NCBI GenBank assembly: GCA_037431425.1
Contig: GCA_037431425.1_4129.3
Strand: one strand, 5' to 3'
DNA: 35,820 nucleotides
Source: a phage
A program made the translations under genes and the position numbers. The notes below the pieces were generated by a model that saw nothing but the letters and a program-made list of their open reading frames with translations, searched no databases and was not told the origin of the DNA. Shown one piece after another: positions 5,768-29,712 of the stretch. Numbering within the stretch: position 1 is the stretch's first letter; every line of letters starts with the position of its first letter.

Positions 5768-7207
5768 ATGAAAAAATATACAATTGACACAAACGTACTA
5801 CTATCTGATCCAAATGCATCTGTTGCTTTTGATGGTGCTGCAATCATTCTACCATTTACAGTACTGGAAGAATTGGATTCGATTAAGAGTCGCAATGTTG
5901 ATGTTTCACGTGATGCTCGTGTTGCGATTCGTAACATTGAAGCAATTATTGCAGAGGCATCACATAATGAGATTAGTTGTACTGGTGTTAATATTGCTGA
6001 TGTTCATACCAATATGAGTCCTGAAAGCAAATTGTTTGTTATTACAAACGAAGAAGCTGAAGCACTAATTCGTACTAAGGCAATTGAAGATAAAGTTCAA
6101 ACACTTCTCAAAAGTTCTGTACCAGATGATAAAATTATCTTAGTCGCTTTAGCAACTGATTCAGTACTGGTTACCCGTGATATCAATATGCGTATCAAGG
6201 CTCTTAGTTATGGAGTTGAAGTACAGGATTATCGTCATGATGTGGTTATCGGTGATAGCGATCTAATGCACGTAGGTCAACATCATCTCGATATCGATTT
6301 CTGGGCAGAATTCAGTGGGATTGAAAATGCTGAAATTAAATCTGAAAAAACAGGTCGCCGCCTGTATCATTATATCCCAACACATCTAATCAAAGATCTT
6401 CTTCCACAAAATCTTTGTATTGGTGACTATCTATATGATAATGCTGATGTGCTCTTTGTTTACGAAGGTCAGTCTGCAATCGAAGAAGATGATGGTAGTC
6501 TAACACCAGAAGATATTTTGGTCTTCCAAGATATTGGTCAATCTGTTGCATTACGTGCTAATGTATGGGATATTAAAGCGAAGAATGTCAAACAAGCACT
6601 AGCTATTAATAGTATTCTCGATCCCGATGTACATCTAACAGTTCTACTAGGTTCTGCTGGGACGGGCAAAACACTAATTACGATTGCTACTGCACTAGAG
6701 TTAGTTCTGGAAAAACGTAAATACGACCGTATTATCTTCTCTAAAACACAAGATTCACAGTTTGAAGATATCGGATTCTTGCCTGGTTCAGAGGCCGAGA
6801 AAGTGATTCCATTTTGTGGTCCAGCGATTGACGCACTAGAGTACCTACATAAAGATGATGCAAATCCACAAGGTAGCATTGAGGAAATCATGAAACGTAA
6901 TGTTATCCAGTTCAAAGCATTGAACTTTATTCGTGGTCGTTCTTTTGCCAATACAATTCTAATTGTGGATGAAGCACAGAACTTAACACCAGCCCAGCTA
7001 AAAACTGTCTTGACAAGAGCCGGAGAAAACTGTAAAGTAATCATACTTGGTAACCTAGCACAGATCGATAACAAGTTTATCAGTCCAGTAAACAGCGGTC
7101 TAACTTATGTAACTGAGAAATTTAAAAATTGGTCTGGTTGTCGTATCATTGAATTGGAAGGTGTTGTTCGTTCACCACTTGCTGAATTTGCTGAAGAAAA
7201 TATGTAA
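5768..7207 (+). CDS. phoH: PIN-domain / PhoH-like ATPase fusion (PhoH2/YlaK-type)
   Basis: N-terminal PIN-like YTIDTNVLL...; Walker A LGSAGTGKT; PhoH-like IVDEAQNLT and GNLAQID; SD AAGGA upstream. Confidence 0.85.
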   Translation: MKKYTIDTNVLLSDPNASVAFDGAAIILPFTVLEELDSIKSRNVDVSRDARVAIRNIEAIIAEASHNEISCTGVNIADVHTNMSPESKLFVITNEEAEALIRTKAIEDKVQTLLKSSVPDDKIILVALATDSVLVTRDINMRIKALSYGVEVQDYRHDVVIGDSDLMHVGQHHLDIDFWAEFSGIENAEIKSEKTGRRLYHYIPTHLIKDLLPQNLCIGDYLYDNADVLFVYEGQSAIEEDDGSLTPEDILVFQDIGQSVALRANVWDIKAKNVKQALAINSILDPDVHLTVLLGSAGTGKTLITIATALELVLEKRKYDRIIFSKTQDSQFEDIGFLPGSEAEKVIPFCGPAIDALEYLHKDDANPQGSIEEIMKRNVIQFKALNFIRGRSFANTILIVDEAQNLTPAQLKTVLTRAGENCKVIILGNLAQIDNKFISPVNSGLTYVTEKFKNWSGCRIIELEGVVRSPLAEFAEENM

Positions 7208-11145: not shown

Positions 11146-12222
11146 ATGGAAGAAATAAAAAAAGAATTAAATCAATTTAATGAATACGTATATAATTTGT
11201 ATTTTAATAAAAATATTATTTTTACTTGGATGAAACCTGAAGATATAAAGTATATAAAAACATCATCATCAAGTAAATCTCCATTTTACTTTGAAAAATT
11301 AATACTCAATAAATCATTTTCAAATTATCATTTTGAATTTCTTGGTTTTAATATAAAAAAATCAGATGATTGGATAGGAAAGCTTACAAATATAGTAATT
11401 AAGTTGAATGATATAATATATATACGTAACATAAAATCTTTTTTGGAGATGCCTGTGACTCTCAAGCGTGTCCCATATGTGATTCATAATTCTAATAATA
11501 TTAGTTACTATTTAAACAAATACAATAAAAATTTAAAATATATAAATTGTATGTATGATAAAATCAATGAAAAAACTTATTTAGATTTACAATGTAAAAT
11601 ATGTGGTTATGAATATAAATCATGTTTAAACAATATTAAACATAGAAGTACAGATTGTCCTGGTTGTATGAATAATGTTGTATTATCTGAAGATGATATG
11701 TTATATAGAATAACATTGAAATTATATACACAACCACATATAAAATTATTAAATTTCAACTATAATAACGGTGGTAATAAGAATGCAATAGGTACATATT
11801 ATTGTGAAATACACAATTATACATGGGATTCTATGTATTTTGGGACAATTGCAAAAGATCAAAGTTGTAAACTTTGTATGCAAGGTCAATCTAAAGGTGA
11901 AAAATATATCACTGAAATATTGGATAATTTAAAGGTAAATTATATAAGAGAATATAAATTTGATAAATGTTTTAATCAAAGAAAATTACCTTTTGATTTT
12001 TATATTCCAGATTTCAATTTATGTATAGAATATGATGGAAGACAACACTTTGAATCTGTGGATTTTTATGGTGGAAACGATGCTTTTTTTATAAGAAAAA
12101 AGAATGATGAAATAAAAAATTCATTCTGTGAAAATAATAATATTACATTATTAAGATTTAATGATCTCAATTTTTCTCGTATTGAATCAACATTGAATAG
12201 AATACTAAAAAGTGTTAAATAA
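11146..12222 (+). CDS. Putative free-standing homing-type endonuclease (Cys-pair zinc-finger region + DUF559/Vsr-like nuclease C-terminus)
   Basis: Much more AT-rich than neighbours; several CxxC pairs; C-terminal ...FDFYIPDFNLCIEYDGRQHFE...ITLLRF resembling the DUF559 restriction-endonuclease-like signature. Confidence 0.5.
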   Translation: MEEIKKELNQFNEYVYNLYFNKNIIFTWMKPEDIKYIKTSSSSKSPFYFEKLILNKSFSNYHFEFLGFNIKKSDDWIGKLTNIVIKLNDIIYIRNIKSFLEMPVTLKRVPYVIHNSNNISYYLNKYNKNLKYINCMYDKINEKTYLDLQCKICGYEYKSCLNNIKHRSTDCPGCMNNVVLSEDDMLYRITLKLYTQPHIKLLNFNYNNGGNKNAIGTYYCEIHNYTWDSMYFGTIAKDQSCKLCMQGQSKGEKYITEILDNLKVNYIREYKFDKCFNQRKLPFDFYIPDFNLCIEYDGRQHFESVDFYGGNDAFFIRKKNDEIKNSFCENNNITLLRFNDLNFSRIESTLNRILKSVK

Positions 12223-16959: not shown

Positions 16960-19659
16960 ATGGCAAATAAAATATATGGTGGTATTGATGTTACACACAA
17001 TGTCACAGTAAAAGGTAAGAGAAGTGCTCAGAGCATCAATGATGACGTATTTGATGAAAACGGTAATCTCACAATAGATGCATATACACAAGATGATATG
17101 TTAGAAATGGTTGGTATGTTACCAATTTCTCGTTATGGTACACAAAACTATCTACCTGCTGGTGTTAATGGTACAACAGTTGGTTCTTCAGAAAATGTGA
17201 ATTCCAGAAATACAAAATTATTTTTAGAAGATGATAACACTTTAGTAATGTTACGTCCAGGTACTAATGGTAGTACTCAAGGTGTTTATTATAGTTATAT
17301 GACCCAAGCAGTAGGTACAACAAATACAAGTCGTATGGTTAATACTACTCGTGCATATAAACCCAATTACTTTGGTGCAGCATACGCAGTTTATTTGTAC
17401 CCAAGTAGTAATGATATTACTTGCGGTTTAGTGAGAATGGAGAATACCGATGGTACATATGTTGATAAAGTTTTTGTGTCAGATAATAATGGTACATTGA
17501 ATGATGCAATGCACACTGGTATTATTCTATCAGATCATACAGCAGTACAACCTTTTGGTGCAATACAATTTGTTATTCGTGCAGAAGATGGTGCATTATA
17601 TTTTTTTAGTTTAGATACACCAAATAATACTCTTAAAATATCCGTCACTAAAGTTACTTTTAGTCCAAGTAATAACCCAGGTGGTGGTACTTATAGTATT
17701 ACTAGAATTACTGGTTGGACTACAAGAACTTTTTATAATGCAATGATAGCTGATGAGAACATTGTTCCTACGATGAAAATAAATTCAACAAATGCCAATG
17801 ATACTCCATACGTTTTAATTCCAAGCGGTATTATTGGGTTTGGTGTTTATATGACAGATCCAGATTTATATGTTGCACAGAAATCAGGTACATCTACATT
17901 CAAATTTAGATTATGTGGTGATATGTGGGTGAGTAATGGTAGATATGACATACGACCACAACATAGTTTTAGTATGACTTTTGATGTTGCAACGAAGCAA
18001 TGTGCACTCGATAATATGACAACGACTGCACCTGTTGCTGTTTATGACAATGGTTCTAGCATGAATGCAACTGGACCTTGCTTGACAACTGACCCATTTT
18101 ATCTTCATGCAGGTGCACGTAATATTTTCAGTAATTATTGCTATGTTCCATCAACAGGGGATGCGTTTTGTTCATTTTCACCAAACCTAGCAGAACCATT
18201 GAATGTATCATATGCAAAATACCCACCAAAATCTTTATTTGATTTGATGGATGTTAGAAGTGTGTCAGCAACTAATTTTATTAATGGTGTAGTATCACCA
18301 AGATTTGGTTCAGCAGTTGGTTCATACCAAGTAGGTGTAGAGTTATTACCAAATAACAGTACTAAACAATATTCAAGACGTTCTGGTGATGGTCGTTTTT
18401 TTCCATCCTATGCTGTTCATAAATCTACACCCAACTTTACATTCAAGTCGTTGAATTATGGTACAGTACCTGGTTATGAACCAACACCTGACCGAAATTT
18501 CATAACCACACCAGAATCACGCATTTTTATAAGTTCAATATCTGGTTCAAACGTCACTACTAATGGTGGTGTTTTGGTTGCTGACATTAGAACATCAACA
18601 CCAATTAGTTTTGATTATAAAGGTAATGTACTGAATAATGGTACAATCAGTATGTCTCAAGATATAATGAATGCTATTAGGAATTCAGAATTTGCTAAAG
18701 TTGCTGGTTCTTGGGATATATCCCCAGCATCAGTAAAAACATTATCAGTTTTCGTTCCACAACAAACTGATATTCCTGTTTTCGCGGTTCTTGCTGCAAC
18801 AACTAATTCCAGAGGACTATATATTCGTATGATTGAATTAGGTGTTAATACAAGAACAGGAGATATTACAACGTGGGCATTTAAACGTTTAGTACATGAA
18901 AGTGTTCAAGCTCTGGATTACAAAACTGATGCCGGATATTATCTTGATAGTGGAAGTATTGGTATTACTATATATGATGCTGGTTCTTTTTACTTCATTG
19001 GTGGTGGTATTCCAGGTTTCTTTCCTACAGTTGGTAATACAGCTTCACCTTTTTTTCGTGCTACTGTAGATAAAGCAAGTAAGCAATTTAATAATTTCCA
19101 TATAGCTGGTTATCGTCCCATCTATGCATTAGACGGTCAACCGTTCGCTTTACCTGGTATTGGATTTGGTATTCTTCAAAGTATAGATCTTCAAAACAAA
19201 ACCATTTTTAGAACATATGGTACTACATTAGAAGATTATAATGCATGGACTGATAAAGGGAATCCATTCATTTGCGTTGTTTCACAAGACGTTGCTCAAG
19301 GTTTTATTATATACTTCACCGAAGAGACACCAGTACTGATATCTGGTAAGCACTATACGTTACCAATATCAAATATTGATTTAACAAAAGTGAAAGCAAA
19401 TCCTGCGAATACTACATTTTATGTGTATATTAAATTAGTGCAGGGTATTGCAAAGTATCATATATCAACAACTGAATTAGCTGAAACTCAGTCAATATTC
19501 TGGATTGGTACAGTGAAAACTAATGATTTACAAATAACCGAAATTAATATCGTTAAACGTTCGCGTTTAGATCTGTTTGGTGCATCCTATGACGCTGCCG
19601 GAAGTTCATTCCCAGTTAGTTCTGGTTTTCCTTCAGGTTCTGGCAATGTGAATTGGTAA
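16960..19659 (+). CDS. Large late protein (899 aa), paralog A; probable virion fibre/adhesin-like protein
   Basis: Late-promoter-driven; N-terminal MLPISRYGTQNYLP and C-terminal module SQDVAQGF...SSGFPSGSGNVNW shared with the other two operon members. Confidence 0.7.
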   Translation: MANKIYGGIDVTHNVTVKGKRSAQSINDDVFDENGNLTIDAYTQDDMLEMVGMLPISRYGTQNYLPAGVNGTTVGSSENVNSRNTKLFLEDDNTLVMLRPGTNGSTQGVYYSYMTQAVGTTNTSRMVNTTRAYKPNYFGAAYAVYLYPSSNDITCGLVRMENTDGTYVDKVFVSDNNGTLNDAMHTGIILSDHTAVQPFGAIQFVIRAEDGALYFFSLDTPNNTLKISVTKVTFSPSNNPGGGTYSITRITGWTTRTFYNAMIADENIVPTMKINSTNANDTPYVLIPSGIIGFGVYMTDPDLYVAQKSGTSTFKFRLCGDMWVSNGRYDIRPQHSFSMTFDVATKQCALDNMTTTAPVAVYDNGSSMNATGPCLTTDPFYLHAGARNIFSNYCYVPSTGDAFCSFSPNLAEPLNVSYAKYPPKSLFDLMDVRSVSATNFINGVVSPRFGSAVGSYQVGVELLPNNSTKQYSRRSGDGRFFPSYAVHKSTPNFTFKSLNYGTVPGYEPTPDRNFITTPESRIFISSISGSNVTTNGGVLVADIRTSTPISFDYKGNVLNNGTISMSQDIMNAIRNSEFAKVAGSWDISPASVKTLSVFVPQQTDIPVFAVLAATTNSRGLYIRMIELGVNTRTGDITTWAFKRLVHESVQALDYKTDAGYYLDSGSIGITIYDAGSFYFIGGGIPGFFPTVGNTASPFFRATVDKASKQFNNFHIAGYRPIYALDGQPFALPGIGFGILQSIDLQNKTIFRTYGTTLEDYNAWTDKGNPFICVVSQDVAQGFIIYFTEETPVLISGKHYTLPISNIDLTKVKANPANTTFYVYIKLVQGIAKYHISTTELAETQSIFWIGTVKTNDLQITEINIVKRSRLDLFGASYDAAGSSFPVSSGFPSGSGNVNW

Positions 19660-19669
19660 TGGAGAGAAT

Positions 19670-20260
19670 ATGTCTTATAAATTTAGAGCAGATGTGGAAG
19701 CTTATGCTTCCGTTAAATCACAAGGAAAAAATACTGGGACCACGATAACTGTTCGTTCTGGTAATGTGTATCAAGCTGATGCAAATGGGAATATTGATAT
19801 ACCAGTCATGAGTACAGATGATGTGAATTACATTACCAGTTCGTTTCCGTTATCACAATTTGGACCACTTTACAGTGATGAACCATTAGGTATTACTTCT
19901 GCGGGTTTCAATTTAACTTTCAGCAAAGAATTACCGTTATTCATGGCGGGAGCGGCGTATACCCTCCCAGCAAAAACAATAACAGATCCTGGTGTTTCTG
20001 GTACTAATATTGAAACACATTATGTATATGTTATATTAGATGTTGGGGTAGCTGACTACCTCATTTCTAAAACTCAACGACCTGAAAGTAGTGTTAATAT
20101 GTACATCGGAAAACTAACAGTTTTCCCAGATGGCATTACAGGGGTCAGTATAAATAAAGTGTCAAGATTTGACAACTTCAGAGTAAGTTCTACAAAAATT
20201 GGTTCAGCTATCCCTATCAGTTCTGGTTCACCAGATGTGAATGGTATGATAGAATGGTAA
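19670..20260 (+). CDS. Late protein (196 aa), paralog B; corresponds to the shared C-terminal module
   Basis: C-terminal ...HYVYVILDVG...YIGKLTV...NKVSRF...ISSGSPDVNGMIEW aligns with the C-termini of paralogs A and C; SD GGAGAG. Confidence 0.65.
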   Translation: MSYKFRADVEAYASVKSQGKNTGTTITVRSGNVYQADANGNIDIPVMSTDDVNYITSSFPLSQFGPLYSDEPLGITSAGFNLTFSKELPLFMAGAAYTLPAKTITDPGVSGTNIETHYVYVILDVGVADYLISKTQRPESSVNMYIGKLTVFPDGITGVSINKVSRFDNFRVSSTKIGSAIPISSGSPDVNGMIEW

Positions 20261-20270
20261 AGGAATATAT

Positions 20271-23012
20271 ATGGCTTCTAGACGAATTATAGGAAACGCA
20301 GATATACTAGGGAATTTAAAAATTAATGGAAAGTATGCATTACGTTCCCTTAATGGTGTTCCTGCTGACTCTGCTGGTAAAATCACTTATCAATATTATG
20401 ACAAAGCGGAAGTAAATCAGATGTTTGATATGCTTCCAGTTTCAAGGGTAGGTGATCAAGATTACCTACCAATGAGTATTAACGGAACTTTTGAAGGTGC
20501 TTCTTCCTTTTCATTTGCAAAAATAATGCAACCTTGTATCATTGAAAATGATGGTACTGGTGTAATTTTACGTGCAGGTACAAATGGAAGTTCTTATGGT
20601 TACTATTATACTTATATTAAAAATATAAGAGATATAGAAACACTAACTCAAGATAATATAATTACAACCAATACGATGTATAGACCGTCTGTGCTACCAA
20701 GTACTGATTACATTTATGAATTTTATGGGTCAAATGCATATGAATTACTATTTTGGGAATCAACTGATAGAACATCATATTACCTTACATTAACAAATGA
20801 AACATTGAATGAATCAGCACACAAGCATTGCAGAATTCCAAAAACAGCAATAACAAATAAACCAATATATGCACACATCGTAAATGATTCAGTTTATATA
20901 TGGTGTATGGATTCAAGTGTATTTAGTAGTGTTCGCGGGTGTGCATTTATTATATACACAGTACCTTTAACTGCATTTAATACTGGTTCAGTTTCTACCG
21001 TAACACAGATTGGTGGTTATTCAGGAAGAACTATAAGAGATGCAACATATACTGCATCTAATAATATTCGCGTTTATGATAGCTATTCTATTTTAGGTTC
21101 AGGTGGTGATGCACTAATAGTATATGATAATGGTGTTTCCAGAATAGATTATTGGGAAAATAACGTATTTAATACCCAAGCAGTTCTTAGCCCAGATGGT
21201 ACAAAAATAAGAGTTGCGATCTATCCAGGATTCCGTGTTTTCACTGAAACAAAAACATCTAGTGTATATGCACTTGGTATTAGCTTTACATATGATATCA
21301 GTACTAAAACAATGACACTTGATGGTTCTGAACGTGGTCCAATCAGAGTATCAGCTAATACATCAACTGGTAGTATAACAGTAAGAAACCCGTTTTCAAT
21401 CAATATGGAAAACTTTACAGGGTTTTATGACGGTGCACTTGGCAACTATGGTTCAATCTGTCAAACTTCTGATGGTTTTGTTTTCACTACCAAAGCAAGA
21501 TGGACATCCACACCAACATATGCAGTACAAACATACAAAGTTTCTGGTACACCTTATGATAGTTGGGTCGCTAAAACACGTACTGCTAGTAATTTAAAAC
21601 GTGTCGAAGTAATGCCAGTTTATGGCTCCCCTGTCGGTGAAAACTTAATAGGTGTTCGTTTCGTAGATAAACGTAAGATACTTGTTGCATGTTCTGGCAC
21701 TGCTGATGGAATTTCTTATGGTTATGATAGTACAGTTTTTACTGAAATAGGTGAGAATCCGACTTATGTTTATAAAAACTTGGAACAAAATACCACAATG
21801 AATGGTTTTGCACCATCAAGTAATAGACACTATTTAAGTACTGATTACAAATATGCAGGTATGATAACATTGGTTGATGCAAATGGAAATGTCAGCACTT
21901 ATGGTTCTTCGTTAATAGAAGACATCGATAAACCAGCGTATGGAAAATTCGACCCAGTTACAATGGACTTCGACAGTAATAGATATGAAATTTCAGGAAC
22001 AACATTATCAAGTATAGGTGATAATGCAATTGCTAAAGCTGGATTGTCTGGAATAACTGATCATAAAACTGTTTTTTATTATGTACCTGATACTACATAT
22101 TCTAAATCGATTGCAGTCACTTCTGCATTAAACGGTACTACCAATGTGTGTTATATTATTTTTTCCGAAATATCATGTAGTGCAGTTGGTACAAGTGGTA
22201 CTATAATTTTACGTGGTATTAATGTTGATACAGCAAGATATACATCAATGACGAATACATACCAAATTTCACCAAATGAAATGGTCAAACGTTGGGCTGG
22301 TATGACGGTTTCTAAGTTTAATGGTTTTAACTACTTAGGCGTGAACATTTTATATGGCATTGATACCCCAGGTTGGACTCGTTATCCTAACATGATTGCT
22401 AAAGTGAAAAATGGTATTATTTCAAGTCAACGATATATGGAAACAACTTATATTTCAAACGCACAATTTGATATAGGTACAATTCCAGGGATTGGGTTTG
22501 GATATTACCAAATGAACAAAAACGATTATCAAACTAAATCAGTTTTTGCTGTATGTGGTACTACTGAAGCAGATATGGATAAACTAATATCTGGTAATGA
22601 AACGATATCACAGTACTTAGTTGTTGCTTCTCAGGACGTGGCACAAGGGTTTCATGTATACTTTTCACAAGAAGTACCAGTTTTCTTGGGTGGAAAGTTT
22701 GCAAAGATACCACCGACTATGATAGACTTATCTACTATAAGTACTACACCAGAGAATTCAACATTCTACATATATGCGGTGATGGATAGAGATACATCCA
22801 CAGCATCGTATCAGATATCACTACATCAATTATCAGAAACTATGACATCAACATACATTGGTAAGATAGTAACTAATAATAATGGTATTGCATCAATCGA
22901 GTCTGAAAAAGTTTCCAGATTCTTGCTATACCGTCCAAGTACCTACAATCGTGGTTCTGCGATCCCAGCAAGTTCTGGTGTTCCGTCAGGAACAGGTACA
23001 CGTTGGAATTAA
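20271..23012 (+). CDS. Large late protein (913 aa), paralog C; probable virion fibre/adhesin-like protein
   Basis: N-terminal MLPVSRVGDQDYLP and C-terminal SQDVAQGFHVYF...SSGVPSGTGTRWN collinear with paralog A. Confidence 0.7.
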   Translation: MASRRIIGNADILGNLKINGKYALRSLNGVPADSAGKITYQYYDKAEVNQMFDMLPVSRVGDQDYLPMSINGTFEGASSFSFAKIMQPCIIENDGTGVILRAGTNGSSYGYYYTYIKNIRDIETLTQDNIITTNTMYRPSVLPSTDYIYEFYGSNAYELLFWESTDRTSYYLTLTNETLNESAHKHCRIPKTAITNKPIYAHIVNDSVYIWCMDSSVFSSVRGCAFIIYTVPLTAFNTGSVSTVTQIGGYSGRTIRDATYTASNNIRVYDSYSILGSGGDALIVYDNGVSRIDYWENNVFNTQAVLSPDGTKIRVAIYPGFRVFTETKTSSVYALGISFTYDISTKTMTLDGSERGPIRVSANTSTGSITVRNPFSINMENFTGFYDGALGNYGSICQTSDGFVFTTKARWTSTPTYAVQTYKVSGTPYDSWVAKTRTASNLKRVEVMPVYGSPVGENLIGVRFVDKRKILVACSGTADGISYGYDSTVFTEIGENPTYVYKNLEQNTTMNGFAPSSNRHYLSTDYKYAGMITLVDANGNVSTYGSSLIEDIDKPAYGKFDPVTMDFDSNRYEISGTTLSSIGDNAIAKAGLSGITDHKTVFYYVPDTTYSKSIAVTSALNGTTNVCYIIFSEISCSAVGTSGTIILRGINVDTARYTSMTNTYQISPNEMVKRWAGMTVSKFNGFNYLGVNILYGIDTPGWTRYPNMIAKVKNGIISSQRYMETTYISNAQFDIGTIPGIGFGYYQMNKNDYQTKSVFAVCGTTEADMDKLISGNETISQYLVVASQDVAQGFHVYFSQEVPVFLGGKFAKIPPTMIDLSTISTTPENSTFYIYAVMDRDTSTASYQISLHQLSETMTSTYIGKIVTNNNGIASIESEKVSRFLLYRPSTYNRGSAIPASSGVPSGTGTRWN

Positions 23013-23019
23013 TTTTAAA

Positions 23020-23046
23020 GCTCGTCTATTGACGGGCTTTTCTTTT
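23020..23046 (+). terminator. Rho-independent terminator ending the late operon
   Basis: GCTCGTC-tatt-GACGGGC (one G-U pair) followed by TTTTCTTTT. Confidence 0.6.
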
Positions 23047-23057
23047 GTGTGTATAAT
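23029..23057 (+). promoter_or_regulatory. sigma70-like promoter (-35 TTGACG, 17-bp spacer, -10 TATAAT) overlapping the terminator
   Basis: TTGACG 23029-23034, TATAAT 23052-23057; strong SD AGGAGG follows. Confidence 0.55.
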
Positions 23058-23080: not shown

Positions 23081-23647
23081 ATGGTCAAATCATTACTACC
23101 ACCACCAAAACGACATAAAATTAAAGAAATGAAAGAACAACGTACATTAAAGATGTACAACAATTTAGTTAATTTACTTTGCAAAAGTCCATCACTCAAA
23201 GAAATATTCACCACAGATGATGATCGTAATGCACTTATTGAGATGAAGTATATGCTCAGTAAAATGTCCTTTTACAAATTTGTCAAAGAATACTCAACTG
23301 AACCATTCAGTCCTCGTTGGCGAGTCAAACCAAGAGAGTATTTTTTCGGTGGTTCATATACTGATATCATTCAAGATACGGTGATAGGCGTAGAGTTCGA
23401 GATTGATTATGAGCCTAATGGTGTGGAAAACTGGCAGATTGACAAGCATTTACCAAGTGAAGATGAAATTTATGTTTATGCAAGAAAACAGTCAACTTTC
23501 AGTTCAAAAATTGCTCTTAATAATTTAGATTCATTTATTATTTTCTATACATTTGTCGGTGTAGATAAAATGGCAACTAAACTCAATGAATTATCATTGC
23601 AACAAAAACAGATTAATGCATACAAAGACATTACAGATTTATACTAA
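23081..23647 (+). CDS. Hypothetical protein, small-paralog family member 1
   Basis: 188 aa; shares SLKEI..TDDDR..L...KY.LSK and a downstream Trp motif with the next two ORFs. Confidence 0.6.
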   Translation: MVKSLLPPPKRHKIKEMKEQRTLKMYNNLVNLLCKSPSLKEIFTTDDDRNALIEMKYMLSKMSFYKFVKEYSTEPFSPRWRVKPREYFFGGSYTDIIQDTVIGVEFEIDYEPNGVENWQIDKHLPSEDEIYVYARKQSTFSSKIALNNLDSFIIFYTFVGVDKMATKLNELSLQQKQINAYKDITDLY

Positions 23648-23659
23648 TGAGGATTGGAT

Positions 23660-24175
23660 ATGTTTTTTGGACCAATTAGAAAACAAAACAGTACTTTAAT
23701 TTGGCATGAAATCATCTTTAAAATTATATCTAAAAGCTACTCACTGAAGGATATTATCAACACAGATCAAGATAGACGTATCCTTTTAGATGCAAAATAT
23801 AAATTGAGCAAACACCCGTTACTTTCTTTAATCATTGATTACGTTAATGATTATGAATCCAGTCGTTGGAAGTGGGAAGACGGAGGTTTATTTCGTGGAA
23901 AAACATTCTACGGTGCAGAACGATATGTATTCAGTGATACAACAAATGGTGTTAAGTTTGCTATTAGAAACTTTAACTCAAAAGAAAATGATTATCTTGA
24001 AAGTGGAGTTAAGGTGTATATAGATAATAATAGCAATGTGCTTACATATGACGAATCACTAATTATGTTACAAATAATGCGTGGAGTTGAAGGTGTAAGA
24101 CGCAATCTTACTAAGTTGAAAATTCAGCAAAATGATATGCATAATAGACAGAAAATTAAGGGTTTATATAAATGA
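23660..24175 (+). CDS. Hypothetical protein, small-paralog family member 2
   Basis: Track starts at TTG 23654; first ATG is 23660 with GAGG 7 nt upstream; family motif SLKDI..TDQDR..LLDAKYKLSK. Confidence 0.55.
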   Translation: MFFGPIRKQNSTLIWHEIIFKIISKSYSLKDIINTDQDRRILLDAKYKLSKHPLLSLIIDYVNDYESSRWKWEDGGLFRGKTFYGAERYVFSDTTNGVKFAIRNFNSKENDYLESGVKVYIDNNSNVLTYDESLIMLQIMRGVEGVRRNLTKLKIQQNDMHNRQKIKGLYK

Positions 24176-24681
24176 TTTCATTTTTCAAAAAGAAAAAAAA
24201 AGTTGATGAAACAGGATTAGAATCGTTTCTATGGACTCTTATCATCAAAAAAAGTCCATTGATGAAAGAATATGCTATCAATGATGCTAATAGAAAAACT
24301 ATCATTGAATACAAATACGAATTATCAAAATGTGATCCAATCGTTTATCACTTTGCGAAGTACTGTTCTAAAAATTTATCGGATATCACGATTGAACACG
24401 AGTCAGTACCAATGAGTTTTCCTTATGGTAATTGGGTAGATACTTTTGATATTTTTGATGGTTCAAATGGTTTCAGATTCTTTTACTCGTCAAATAAAGC
24501 AAATGTTCGTATTAAAACAGAGATAGGTTGGACACAGCATAGCTCAAATAAAGAAGATTATAATTTACTAGCTGACGTATACCGAAGTGTGAAAAATTCA
24601 AAGGATATTGATGAAAGAATTAAAAAGCAAAATAGTATTACTTTATCACTTGAAACATATAAGTCAAAGTATGGTGGTTAA
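24172..24681 (+). CDS. Hypothetical protein, small-paralog family member 3
   Basis: ATGA coupling; family motif LMKEYAINDANR..IIEYKYELSK. Confidence 0.55.
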   Translation: MISFFKKKKKVDETGLESFLWTLIIKKSPLMKEYAINDANRKTIIEYKYELSKCDPIVYHFAKYCSKNLSDITIEHESVPMSFPYGNWVDTFDIFDGSNGFRFFYSSNKANVRIKTEIGWTQHSSNKEDYNLLADVYRSVKNSKDIDERIKKQNSITLSLETYKSKYGG

Positions 24682-24683
24682 CT

Positions 24684-25085
24684 ATGACTACAGTTGATGA
24701 TATTTACAGCACTATACGCAATATGAGCACAGATAGAAAAGTATTTGGTGATAAAGAAAAATCTAAGTGTTATGGTATTGATTCTTTTGATATAATTTCG
24801 TATGAGTACAACACGAATGGAAATAGTTCACTGAATATTGTCTGCCCTCGTGACCCAGAAAATAATTTTATGTATGTTGAAATTAATAATGATGGAATGT
24901 TTTTTACAAAAGTTTTTAAAGGTGGAATTAATTACGAAACGATTGAATGTATGAATGAAGAAACTTTCTTTCAAGAAGATACAATTATCAATTTAGGTTT
25001 TAGTTTTGATGATTATAAAACATTAGAACATGACTTTAATCGTTATTATAACGGTTTCTTAAAGGAGTTAACAATTTATCTATGA
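24684..25085 (+). CDS. Hypothetical protein
   Basis: ORF in the operon; ATGA coupling with the next gene. Confidence 0.5.
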   Translation: MTTVDDIYSTIRNMSTDRKVFGDKEKSKCYGIDSFDIISYEYNTNGNSSLNIVCPRDPENNFMYVEINNDGMFFTKVFKGGINYETIECMNEETFFQEDTIINLGFSFDDYKTLEHDFNRYYNGFLKELTIYL

Positions 25086-26314
25086 ATAACCAATATGTCG
25101 AACAAACAATAGTGAAACACTTGGCTGGGTCACAAGCCTACGGAACCAGTACACCTGAAAGTGATACTGATTATCGTGGTATTTTTCTTGCTAATAAAGA
25201 ATTTATTCTTACGCCATTCTATAAGGTTAAAGAAGTAGCTGATAAAAATGAAGAAGATACCAAATTCTATGAGTTAAATCAGTATTTAAAATTATACACT
25301 GATGCTAACCCTAATATTCTGGAATCACTATGGGTTGAACCAGAACACATTGTAGAAAGTACTGAGATTTATGACTATCTTCGTTCATTTAACCAAAAAC
25401 TTCTTAGTTCCAAGATTGCATTTTCATACACTGGATATGCATATAATCAAATTAAACGTATGACAAATCACCACGGTTGGATGGATAAAGAGCGTATTGC
25501 TGAAAAACGTTTAAATGAGATTTTAGAAGAACACCCAGTCGATGAGGTTCTTGTGTGGATGTATGATTCATTCCCACAATATCTTGTTGACCGTTTAGAT
25601 ACATCCAAATTACATCCATTTAATGCTAAAAAGATTGATTTTGAAAAATACATGCGTGATACGTCATTGCAGTTAGTTTCGAAAAATCCATTAAAGCAAT
25701 ATCATTTTGTAAGATTAGTGCATAACTACACTACTGATAAAATTCTAGATCGTGATTTCAATTTATTGAATTTTAACAATGGGTATGAACTAATTCATTA
25801 CGGAGAAAACATTTTTGCGATTATTAAAAATCCAAATGAAAGTACAATCAACGGTGATGGTTCATTGCGACATTTTTCAAAAGAGCGTAGTACTGAAGAG
25901 TTGAAAACCAAACCAGAACTAATTGTCAAATTTAACGAAAAAGAATATCAGGAAAATAGTGAGAATAGAAAAAGTTATCATAAATGGAAAGAAAATCGTA
26001 ATGCCAAACGTGCTATTTTAGAATCACTACACGGCTATGATTGCAAAAGTGCAATGCATACCATTAGACTATTGAATAGTGCAGAAGATGCATTACAAAG
26101 TGGGATTATTCAAGTTAAACGCCCAGATGCACAGATGTTGATGAATATTCGTAATGGTAAATGGAAGTATGAAGAAGTTTTAGAATATTTCGATGATAAA
26201 GTAAAATATATCCGTGATGTTCTATATAAGAAATCAGAACTTCCAAAAAAACCAGATATTAAATTAGCATCGAAAATTATCATTGATATCCGAGAGATGC
26301 AATGGTATAAGTAA
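25082..26314 (+). CDS. Pol-beta-superfamily nucleotidyltransferase (RlaP-like)
   Basis: N-terminal GSQAYGTSTPESDTDYRGIF fits the G[GS]-x(9-13)-DxD NTase signature; 410 aa. Confidence 0.6.
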   Translation: MNNQYVEQTIVKHLAGSQAYGTSTPESDTDYRGIFLANKEFILTPFYKVKEVADKNEEDTKFYELNQYLKLYTDANPNILESLWVEPEHIVESTEIYDYLRSFNQKLLSSKIAFSYTGYAYNQIKRMTNHHGWMDKERIAEKRLNEILEEHPVDEVLVWMYDSFPQYLVDRLDTSKLHPFNAKKIDFEKYMRDTSLQLVSKNPLKQYHFVRLVHNYTTDKILDRDFNLLNFNNGYELIHYGENIFAIIKNPNESTINGDGSLRHFSKERSTEELKTKPELIVKFNEKEYQENSENRKSYHKWKENRNAKRAILESLHGYDCKSAMHTIRLLNSAEDALQSGIIQVKRPDAQMLMNIRNGKWKYEEVLEYFDDKVKYIRDVLYKKSELPKKPDIKLASKIIIDIREMQWYK

Positions 26315-26408: not shown

Positions 26409-26438
26409 AGAGAACTTCATATGGAGTTCTCTTTTTTT
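26409..26438 (+). terminator. Rho-independent terminator overlapping the promoter
   Basis: AGAGAACT-tcatatgg-AGTTCTCT followed by TTTTTTT. Confidence 0.65.
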
Positions 26439-26452
26439 ATAAGGGTGATTAA

Positions 26453-26854
26453 ATGTTAAATGAACGTATTAAAAATGCACTATATGTATTGAACCAAGAA
26501 GTTAATTCTATTAATAAAAGTACTGAGCGATATAAAGTATTACATGAAATTAGACAAGAATTGGAATCTATTAATAAGGGAAAATGGGTTCTTGAACGCG
26601 AACGAACTATTGTTGAAAAAGCAATTGCAAAATTCATCTCTGAACGTTATGGTAAAATTTCAGAGGAAGATGTACTAATGAACTTACATCTTTCACAAAC
26701 GGAAGTGATGGAGAAATTTCATTTTGATTCATTAGACTGGTTGGAAATGATCATGGAATTGGAAGAAGAATTCAATGTAGAAGTAGATTTATATTATGAA
26801 AAACAAGAAACCAAACTATATGAACTAGCAGAACATATTAAACTAATGATGTAA
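26453..26854 (+). CDS. Acyl-carrier-protein-like protein with ~60-aa N-terminal extension
   Basis: C-terminal FDSLDWLEMIMELEEEFNVEV matches the ACP phosphopantetheine-attachment region (E. coli ACP [22 protein letters not shown]). Confidence 0.65.
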   Translation: MLNERIKNALYVLNQEVNSINKSTERYKVLHEIRQELESINKGKWVLERERTIVEKAIAKFISERYGKISEEDVLMNLHLSQTEVMEKFHFDSLDWLEMIMELEEEFNVEVDLYYEKQETKLYELAEHIKLMM

Positions 26855-26907: not shown

Positions 26908-27282
26908 ATGAGTGTACTAGAAATTATTGTTTCAAAAATTTTAATTCCATATTGGAAGCCGATTTCTTTTGCGTTATTACTCGGTGGTGCGGCATTATCA
27001 GGTTGGAAAGCTAATACTTATTATACTGGTTATCAGCAAAGTATCGAGCAACAAATAGCCAAACAGGTTGATGTCGCACTTGATAAAATGCAACAGGAAA
27101 ATGCAAAAAATTACATTGAAACAAAAAAAATCATGGAAGATAATGCTAAAGTTATTGAAACGAAAGTTCCTTATATAGTAGAACGCAAAGTTTATAAGAA
27201 TGTGTGTTTAGATGAAGATGGCGTGAAAATTCTAAATGATCTAAAACAAAATTCACAAGCAATGAGGAATAAGTTAAAATGA
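26908..27282 (+). CDS. Putative i-spanin (inner-membrane spanin, Rz-like)
   Basis: N-terminal TM helix, then charged helical periplasmic region; SD AGGAGA; immediately precedes a lipoprotein gene. Confidence 0.55.
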   Translation: MSVLEIIVSKILIPYWKPISFALLLGGAALSGWKANTYYTGYQQSIEQQIAKQVDVALDKMQQENAKNYIETKKIMEDNAKVIETKVPYIVERKVYKNVCLDEDGVKILNDLKQNSQAMRNKLK

Positions 27283-27587
27283 AAAAAATATTAGTCCCAA
27301 TGATTTCTTTTTTAATTATAAGTGGTTGTGCTGAACAAGCAAAACTACAATCCCCTGCACCTATTAAACAAGAAATTCTATTAGAAAGATGTGATGATGA
27401 TACACCTCTGCCACAAAAAATCATGATTGACAATAATGGTTTTAAAGGTTATGATGGTGCAGAAATTCTTAAAGTACTTACTCGTTGGGATGCAATCTAT
27501 AATGAGTGTGCTTTAAAACATGATGCCTTGATTAAAACTATTCGCGATTTACAAGGCAAAGATATTAAAATTAATATCAAGGAATAA
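27279..27587 (+). CDS. Putative o-spanin (outer-membrane lipoprotein, Rz1-like)
   Basis: Signal peptide with lipobox IISGC; ~100 aa; ATGA coupling with the upstream gene. Confidence 0.55.
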   Translation: MKKILVPMISFLIISGCAEQAKLQSPAPIKQEILLERCDDDTPLPQKIMIDNNGFKGYDGAEILKVLTRWDAIYNECALKHDALIKTIRDLQGKDIKINIKE

Positions 27588-29016: not shown

Positions 29017-29045
29017 TGGGACAATAATTGAACCTGTGATATAAT
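29017..29045 (+). promoter_or_regulatory. Promoter: -35-like TGGGACA plus extended -10 TGaTATAAT
   Basis: TGGGACAATA at 29017-29026, TGATATAAT at 29037-29045; same motif and spacing as at 7215-7244. Confidence 0.5.
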
Positions 29046-29326
29046 GTATATTGTAAAATGACAACGGACATTGTAAAAAATGGACACTGAAAACCTAATT
29101 CACTTGAAAATGTAAAGGATAGATGAGCTTTACCGTTGTAGCGAACAGCAGAAGAAACCCGTTAGAGTACTGGCATTCAAACAAACACGATGTAAGACCA
29201 CGAATCACGGCGACACGGCTGTATAAAGAACTCCGATAAGCATACAGAGAGTTCCTAGATAGATGTATAAGGTTCGCACCTTACCAGATTTGCTAAGGGA
29301 GTTTAAGAATGGCGAACGCAATTTTT

Positions 29327-29355
29327 ACAAGAAAGTTGCGTCCAAAATTTGAGAA
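29327..29355. repeat. Direct repeat copy 1 (29 nt)
   Basis: ACAAGAAAGTTGCGTCCAAAATTTGAGAA; 26/29 identical to copy 2, 153 bp away. Confidence 0.8.
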
Positions 29356-29479
29356 CAAGTACTACTTTGATCGAATAGAGTTAGTACTGAGTGCTGTTGA
29401 TGAAAAGACCAGCGACCGTTGCATATGACTGCGATAGAGAGAAACCGAGCAACCCGCTTTCGCTCTCTAAATCTTTGGT

Positions 29480-29508
29480 ACGAGAAAGATCCGTCCAAAA
29501 TTTGAGAA
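29480..29508. repeat. Direct repeat copy 2 (29 nt)
   Basis: ACGAGAAAGATCCGTCCAAAATTTGAGAA. Confidence 0.8.
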
Positions 29509-29546
29509 ATTCGCAATTCGATAATATCCGATGCCATCAGCGTCAA

Positions 29547-29573
29547 GAAGAGACTTAATTGTCTCTTTTTTAT
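29547..29573 (+). terminator. Rho-independent terminator closing the non-coding island
   Basis: AAGAGAC-ttaatt-GTCTCTT followed by TTTTTT. Confidence 0.65.
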
Positions 29574-29712
29574 TACTTTCATTCCCCTGTGGGGGGATGA
29601 AATAGTCCTCAACAAATCCCGTCAAGTTATTAAAATACATTATCATTATTCAGAAGTAACAAGTTTACGAAGTAAACGAAGTGACTTCTTGGGTTGCGAG
29701 AGAACGAAGTGA

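Follow-up and report, generated by a model that had tools for sequence, protein, structure and literature searches.

A jumbo-phage nucleotidyltransferase of the RlaP family with a large inter-domain insertion and a probable role in tRNA repair

The Pnkp/Rnl1 pathway of phage T4 is the classic case of a virus repairing tRNA damage inflicted by its host. Nucleases of the RloC type are thought to defeat this pathway, as they remove a nucleotide before repair takes place. Enzymes of the RlaP family are the proposed answer to such excision, and bacterial members of the family were first assayed in late 2025. RlaP has been described as the most prevalent nucleotidyltransferase (NTase) of its kind in jumbo phages, where it is co-distributed with RNA ligases, and was predicted to replace nucleotides that RloC-type nucleases have taken out (Iyer et al. 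2021, PMC7824862). The Pseudomonas enzymes PfRlaP and PaRlaP were found to add one or two nucleoside monophosphates to RNA 3′-OH ends (Carruthers, Fatma and Huang, bioRxiv, December 2025; PMC12776372). These enzymes prefer Mn2+, accept all four nucleoside triphosphates as well as dATP, favor the break site of a cleaved-tRNA mimic, and do not use DNA or protein as acceptors; together with T4 Rnl1, bacterial RlaP restored aminoacylation to a tRNA missing one anticodon-loop nucleotide (PMC12776372). The crystal structure reported in the same work comprises an NTase domain, a helical domain and a terminal helix (PMC12776372). Here we describe a phage member of this family encoded in a 35,820-nucleotide stretch of phage DNA (GenBank assembly GCA_037431425.1, contig GCA_037431425.1_4129.3; hereafter the window), whose 410-residue product carries a large insertion between the two domains of the family.

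The gene lies at positions 25082..26314 on the + strand and opens with an ATG start codon. Its product matches Pfam family PF10127 (RlaP, "RNA repair pathway DNA polymerase beta family"), scoring 57.5 bits where the cut-off is 23 (E = 2e-15), and PHROG 388 ("nucleotidyltransferase") over its full length (E = 1e-75). The original prediction, made from the sequence alone, had placed a 410-aa (amino acid) pol-beta-type nucleotidyltransferase at this position, and the open reading frame (ORF), both family matches and the conserved residues confirm it. Homologs are numerous, with 734 found at E <= 0.001 in a collection of 5.8 billion proteins and tblastn matches in 1207 phage records. The 410-aa protein is 99.8% identical to WAE77100.1, a protein of Escherichia phage ph0011 annotated simply as "nucleotidyltransferase". 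Searches of NCBIfam and PADLOC gave no matches, and searches of PDB chain sequences, either with the single protein or with a 56-sequence profile, returned nothing at E <= 10. The gene is already annotated in GenBank, its family is represented in Pfam and PHROGs, and a role for the family in jumbo phages has been predicted in print.

The family assignment was tested further by profile–profile comparison. Canonical RlaP references were taken from recognizable RNA-repair loci that were located by tblastn in plasmids, specifically the two NTases of a Hen1-NTase-NTase-Pnkp operon from Deinococcus gobiensis and one NTase near RtcB from Deferribacter; PF10127 covers these reference proteins end to end. 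When the profile of 56 phage-type sequences was compared in hhalign with a 21-sequence canonical RlaP profile, the match had a probability of 99.94% (E = 6e-37) and aligned both the NTase core (aa 7-128) and the helical domain at the C terminus (aa ~305-409), leaving aa ~129-304 unaligned. Because both domains align to canonical RlaPs, and because the catalytic residues are conserved in all three groups examined (phage-type, T4 NrdC.11-type and canonical), the 410-aa protein is, judged by its sequence, a genuine RlaP that has both domains of the family and whose catalytic center is intact. Among the families that the original prediction had put forward for comparison, RlaP was thus recovered at the profile–profile level, whereas membership in the CD-NTase, MNT or KNTase groups was not. 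Its description of the substrate as unknown can also be revised, as by analogy the substrate class is known at the family level, RlaP enzymes acting on RNA 3′ ends.

The catalytic signature of the protein, GSQAYGTSTPESDTDYRGIF, is located at aa 16-35 with a spacing of exactly G16-S17, ten residues and D28-T-D30. This GS-x10-DxD pattern had been picked out in the original prediction, and the Pfam match, the PHROG match and the 734 homologs indicate that it is not a chance occurrence. G16, S17, D28, D30 and E81 are invariant across the 56 aligned phage-type relatives, and the G-S and DxD residues are also conserved in the T4 NrdC.11-type and canonical RlaP groups when all are aligned jointly. 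The full set of positions conserved in all three groups consists of G16, S17, G21, S27, D28, D30, E81 (Asp in NrdC.11), G118, Y119, Q123, K322, H326, R329, G341 and G359. Based on what is known of the Pol-beta superfamily, E81 is the probable third catalytic carboxylate. With respect to the C-terminal domain, eight homolog clusters (P0361, P0364, P0366, P0375, P0378, P0394, P0402 and P0094) were observed to contain an intein of ~330 aa, which begins with Cys after the sequence GYD and ends with Asn before TKHAMH, directly ahead of the K322/H326/R329 motif; one allele carries a LAGLIDADG_3 domain. The insertion of an intein immediately before this motif in eight clusters is consistent with the K/H/R motif being functionally critical.

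An AlphaFold2 model built from the 56-sequence alignment was confident (mean predicted local distance difference test score, pLDDT, 92.1; predicted template-modelling score, pTM, 0.82). It consists of an alpha/beta NTase core with strands at residues 9-15, 30-35, 51-54, 60-64 and 90-93, a long helix at 112-150, a mixed helical and beta-sheet region extending to ~285, and a helical bundle at 286-409. The confident alpha/beta core bears out the NTase fold anticipated in the original prediction. Its "long helical C-terminal region" held in part: the long helix and the C-terminal helical bundle (~305-409) are present, but between them lies a mixed alpha/beta insertion (~129-304).

The insertion was modelled confidently, yet it matched no solved fold. 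An exhaustive HMMER search of 1.84 billion proteins with an insert-only profile recovered 89 representatives, nearly all of them 340-430 aa long with the module at ~130-310 and the same overall architecture; one further match, P0405, was discarded as a low-complexity repeat protein. As nearly all of these representatives share a single architecture, the module appears to be confined to one phage subfamily of RlaP enzymes. The insertion contains few invariant polar residues among the 56 aligned sequences, which suggests a structural or recognition role in place of a catalytic one, and the ~175-residue segment is probably a substrate-recognition or scaffolding module.

Building from these assignments, we consider it probable, at roughly 0.65, that the protein is a template-independent RNA 3′-end nucleotidyltransferase that acts in phage tRNA repair together with Pnkp and Rnl1. 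By analogy with the two bacterial RlaPs, the phage enzyme would share their activity on RNA 3′-OH ends and would use tRNA as its substrate. In this pathway, host anticodon nucleases would cut and then shorten tRNAs, as in wobble-nucleotide excision of the RloC type. Pnkp would then generate a 3′-OH end, RlaP would refill the missing nucleotide or nucleotides, and Rnl1 would seal the remaining nick. Within the active site, D28, D30 and E81 are expected to bind two divalent metals, probably Mn2+. In the infected cell, RlaP would most likely work with T4-type Pnkp, Rnl1 and other phage enzymes of tRNA maintenance. The published prediction for the family names as the target the gap that wobble-excising nucleases leave in the anticodon loop, and this target is less certain than the chemistry itself.

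Genomic context for this proposal was obtained from ph0011, an Asteriusvirus jumbo phage of 348 kb that shares 99.1% identity with the window across the 6 kb that were compared. Both partner enzymes co-occur with RlaP in ph0011, which encodes homologs of T4 Rnl1 (E = 2e-58 to PDB 2c5u) and of T4 Pnkp (E = 6e-39 to 1ltq). Its genes also include those for two peptidyl-tRNA hydrolases, one PTH2-type and one Pth-type, along with a CCA-adding enzyme, NUDIX proteins and a protein with a macro domain. The RNA-repair genes of ph0011 all fall outside the window, and the link to Rnl1 and Pnkp is read from ph0011, not from the window's own genome. The window itself contains zero tRNA genes and zero Rfam families. 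Among more distant relatives, a CCA-adding enzyme (PolyA_pol family) is found one to two genes, or ~2 kb, from the homologs in phage Ro1 and in metagenomic locus L011, and Thg1 is found ~3 kb from the homolog in Yersinia phage fHe-Yen9-04. The link between RlaP and RNA repair is thus seen across the genome as a whole, with recurrent neighbors that act on tRNA ends, and not at the level of the operon.

Fusion proteins were also observed among the homologs. In clusters P0415, P0419, P0425, P0430 and P0432, a whole RlaP-type NTase is joined to a C-terminal RNase T/DEDDh 3′-5′ exonuclease with intact catalytic motifs, and some of these fusions have an additional conserved C-terminal tail of ~120 aa. 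By coupling 3′-end addition with 3′-end trimming, these predicted architectures argue for a nucleic-acid 3′ end as the substrate in the insert-bearing subfamily.

A number of observations weigh against a role in tRNA repair with Pnkp and Rnl1. In ph0011, the Rnl1 and Pnkp genes lie ~38-40 kb upstream of the RlaP gene, which shares no operon with an RNA ligase; the direct neighbors of the RlaP gene carry no assigned function, their PHROG matches being labelled function unknown. In metagenomic loci L010 and L012, the homolog is flanked by genes for gp32, UvsX and UvsW, and T4 nrdC.11, which encodes a relative, can be deleted under laboratory conditions. The PF10127 match covers only aa 12-131, corresponding to profile positions 23-144 of 249 (the N-terminal third), and it was extended to the C-terminal domain neither by searching with the C-terminal fragment alone nor by an insert-deleted construct; as HMMER and Pfam alone did not detect that domain, profile–profile comparison was needed to find it. 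No RlaP structure, the PfRlaP crystal structure included, was among the PDB sequence or fold matches, and the ~175-aa insertion, having no known fold, could alter the substrate.

The same chemistry might instead be directed at the tRNA acceptor (3′-CCA) end or at other RNA 3′ termini, where RlaP, the CCA-adding enzyme and 3′-5′ exonucleases would trim and refill ends in opposition to host factors that damage or extend them. The CCA-adding enzymes near the Ro1 and L011 homologs and Thg1 near the Yersinia homolog would fit such a target, as would the CCA-adding enzyme that ph0011 itself encodes ~13 kb downstream of its RlaP gene. The five clusters fused to an RNase T-type DEDDh exonuclease point the same way; in E. 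coli, RNase T is an enzyme that trims the 3′ ends of tRNAs. We nonetheless regard this target as rather unlikely, given that, on the cleaved-tRNA mimic, bacterial RlaPs favored the 3′ end at the break in the anticodon loop over the acceptor end, that a CCA-adding enzyme alone suffices for CCA repair, and that adjacency to tRNA-end enzymes is seen in some lineages only. It is likewise unlikely, in our view, that the insertion, which sits at the hinge of the substrate cleft, retargets the RlaP core to tRNA acceptor ends, recombination DNA 3′ ends or defense-related oligonucleotides, which would make the protein a counter-defense enzyme mechanistically distinct from the bacterial RlaPs; under such retargeting, pairing with a 3′-5′ exonuclease might amount to trim-and-refill editing, as the fusions suggest.

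Activities further removed from RNA ends were also weighed. A terminal transferase for DNA 3′ ends, or a primer-independent oligo(deoxy)nucleotide synthase like Hailong HalB, could serve recombination or replication, or else counter-defense, for instance if it restored or imitated an oligonucleotide signal. Generic structural similarity and the two DNA-metabolism neighborhoods are all that speak for it, bacterial RlaPs failed to extend DNA, and we judge it quite improbable. Nucleotidylylation of a small molecule or protein (KNTase/ANT-like, or MNT-like AMPylation of a HEPN toxin) and synthesis of cyclic or linear signalling nucleotides (CD-NTase-like) are very improbable. Structural matches to these groups reflect no more than the fold common to the superfamily, with template-modelling (TM) scores of 0.15-0.3, and no Pfam, NCBIfam or PADLOC match to any of them was obtained. 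Specifically, structures of KNTase/ANT/Lnu antibiotic nucleotidyltransferases were reached in Foldseek with E values of at least 0.016, TM scores of 0.19-0.30 and 10-12% identity, short of a close match that takes in their drug-binding C-terminal domain, and with no Pfam match. For the CD-NTase/cGAS-like group, 6u7b was the only entry listed and stood at chance level (E = 1.8, probability 0.02), with no PADLOC or Pfam match; the 410-aa protein also did not fit the MNT antitoxins of MNT-HEPN systems, in which a small MNT domain is paired with a HEPN toxin bearing an Rx4-6H motif. Bacterial RlaPs did not label proteins, and the exonuclease fusions indicate nucleic-acid ends. Overall, tRNA repair alongside Pnkp and Rnl1 remains the reading that we prefer.

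The local arrangement of the gene is summarized in Table 1. The ATG of the RlaP gene overlaps the stop of the 133-aa ORF before it (ctATGA), and the two genes are probably co-translated; no homolog of this ORF was found adjoining RlaP genes outside the genus. Read from the sequence, five tightly packed ORFs (23081..26314), of which the RlaP gene comes last, lie between terminator-like hairpins and form a putative single transcription unit. In the consensus scan, terminator-like sites were enriched, with 8 found against 2.1 expected, and related phage records annotate terminators around the region of the downstream hairpin. The first three ORFs of the group (23081..24681, + strand; 188, 173 and 169 aa) are tandem paralogs that match phrog_18641 and phrog_7868 and share the motif K-S-P-S-L-K-E...D-x-R...K-Y-x-L-S-K. 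A conserved partner was sought by tblastn among the four small upstream ORFs, and none was found in other lineages beyond the Yersinia phage; the Yersinia jumbo phage locus (L009) contains one member of the paralog family together with an acyl carrier protein (ACP) gene.

Table 1. Coordinates of the RlaP-family gene, its domains and motifs, and adjacent elements in the window.
Feature	Position	Strand	Basis or remarks
RlaP-family nucleotidyltransferase gene	25082..26314	+	410 aa plus stop; ORF, translation, PF10127, PHROG 388
N-terminal Pol-beta NTase core, aa 1-128	25082..25465	+	Pfam aa 12-131; canonical RlaP alignment aa 7-128; AlphaFold2
GS-x10-DxD catalytic signature (G16 S17 ... D28 T D30)	25127..25171	+	Invariant in 56 phage-type homologs
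E81, probable third carboxylate, within NPNILE	25322..25324	+	Invariant in the 56-sequence alignment; E in canonical RlaPs, D in T4 NrdC.11
Phage-type insertion, aa ~129-304: helical extension plus small beta-sheet subdomain	25466..25993	+	Between both RlaP domains
C-terminal helical domain common with canonical RlaP, aa ~305-410, including terminal helix	25994..26311	+	hhalign; AlphaFold2 helices 308-409
K322-x3-H326-x2-R329 motif (KSAMHTIR), core of C-terminal domain	26045..26068	+	K, H, R kept in all three groups
Shine-Dalgarno-like AAGGAG	25062..25067	+	14 nt 5′ of RlaP-gene ATG; read from sequence
133-aa ORF	24684..25085	+	Matches phrog_22376; stop overlaps RlaP start (ATGA)
Terminator-like hairpin (23017-23040) overlapping promoter-like site (23029-23057; 11/12 matches)	23017..23057	+	Consensus scan only
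Terminator-like hairpin (26409-26432) plus T-run	26409..26439	+	95 nt 3′ of RlaP stop; between RlaP and ACP-like gene

Downstream of the RlaP gene, an ACP-like gene (26453..26854, +) encodes a protein that is extended at its N terminus by ~50 aa and carries a DSLD phosphopantetheine-site motif; it matches PF00550 exactly at threshold and also matches phrog_18343. In Yersinia phage fHe-Yen9-04 a homolog lies ~1.4 kb 3′ of the RlaP gene, which makes the region syntenic. A functional link between the two genes was considered, in view of the CitX/MdcG-type holo-ACP synthases that are also nucleotidyltransferase-like, and was rejected: a hairpin plus T-run separates the genes in the window, three genes intervene in the Yersinia jumbo phage, and ACP is absent near the homologs of Ro1, L010, L011, L012 and T4. 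Farther along, a spanin-like pair (26908..27282 and 27279..27587, +) overlaps by 4 nt without being embedded; the first gene is Rz-like with an N-terminal hydrophobic segment (phrog_1152), and the second encodes 102 aa with a lipobox-like ISGC motif (phrog_2425). Positions 29017..29712 form ~700 nt without a + strand ORF of at least 110 aa, in which a promoter-like site (29018-29045) is followed by a terminator-like hairpin (29545-29570); neither an Rfam family nor a tRNA was detected there.

Elsewhere in the window, a 479-aa protein (5768..7207, +) joins a PIN domain at its N terminus to a C-terminal PhoH-like ATPase and is labelled "PINc domain-containing protein" in ph0011. A 358-aa ORF in a stretch of 23.6% GC (11146..12222, +) matches the homing/HNH endonuclease PHROGs 559 and 9084 with no Pfam match. 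Neither ph0011 nor any of the 33 related Asteriusvirus records contains it, the flanks alone matching there, and the ORF probably represents a mobile homing-endonuclease insertion specific to the strain. A 196-aa ORF (19670..20260, +; phrog_26864) lies between two large paralogs of 899 and 913 aa (16960..19659 and 20271..23012, +; both phrog_3573) and matches just their C-terminal ~120 residues. Related records annotate this region (16960..23012) as tail fiber or tail protein, and its length varies, with ~3.4 kb more in PBECO4-like Asteriusvirus records.

With respect to significance, the gene need not count as an orphan enzyme. It is recognizable and rather ordinary apart from the unusual size of its extra domain. 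Should the phage enzyme refill excised nucleotides, a viral repair pathway of three enzymes would be complete, and the standing of RlaP as the commonest extra nucleotidyltransferase of jumbo phages would be accounted for. As far as we have found, no earlier description exists of the hinge insertion by which a phage subfamily is defined, of the fusions to an exonuclease or of the site of the intein. The contribution is modest, and the fusions and the inteins in the K-H-R motif provide concrete handles for experiments.

In comparison with known enzymes, the closest solved structure is that of Hailong HalB (PDB 9dbh), at 16% identity and with no detectable sequence relationship. HalB is a 217-aa tyrosine-primed poly-dA synthase that is paired with the HalA channel; no HalA-type partner was seen near the 410-aa protein, which also has no PADLOC match. 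CCA-adding enzymes (PF01743) resemble RlaP in belonging to the Pol-beta superfamily, in template-free addition to RNA 3′ ends and in their part in tRNA repair, and they often adjoin phage RlaP homologs, but the 410-aa protein gave no PF01743 match at E <= 1. Within PHROG 388, homologs of ~350 aa are found in Vequintavirinae (Ro1, CR3), Lak phages and many metagenomic phages. They are 32-47% identical to the 410-aa protein and have the beta-subdomain part of the insertion in common with it, whereas the Asteriusvirus/Eneladusvirus jumbo-phage class has an extra helical segment of ~60 aa (aa ~134-196) within the insertion.

T4 NrdC.11 (336 aa) has been assigned to cluster 5 in a sequence similarity network of PF10127 (PMC12776372). 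The phage-type profile matches an NrdC.11 profile across 311 columns (aa 8 to aa 403) at a probability of 98.4%. NrdC.11 likewise has partial Pfam coverage (profile positions 24-142), is a phage protein encoded apart from rnlA and pseT, and carries a large inter-domain segment (~116 aa). It differs in that identity by BLASTP is 29% and confined to the NTase core, in that the middle segments align poorly, and in that its third carboxylate is Asp where the 410-aa protein has Glu. NrdC.11 homologs, which are PF10127 NTases, are labelled "thioredoxin" in many GenBank and UniRef entries (for example H33, H37 and H42, and clusters P0124, P0128 and P0140), apparently an annotation error propagated from the gene name nrdC.11.

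Canonical bacterial RlaPs are exemplified by the rtcB-rlaP-rtcA operons of Pseudomonas fluorescens and P. aeruginosa and by the two RlaPs of the Hen1-RlaP-RlaP-Pnkp operon of D. gobiensis. In contrast to these, the phage gene stands outside any RNA-ligase operon, its product is recognized by Pfam in the N-terminal third only, and it is larger, at 410 aa against ~260-300 aa, with an inter-domain segment of ~175 residues against a median of 17. The G-S, DxD, E and C-terminal K/H/R residues are nonetheless the same, and the order of the domains agrees with the PfRlaP crystal structure as described (PMC12776372).

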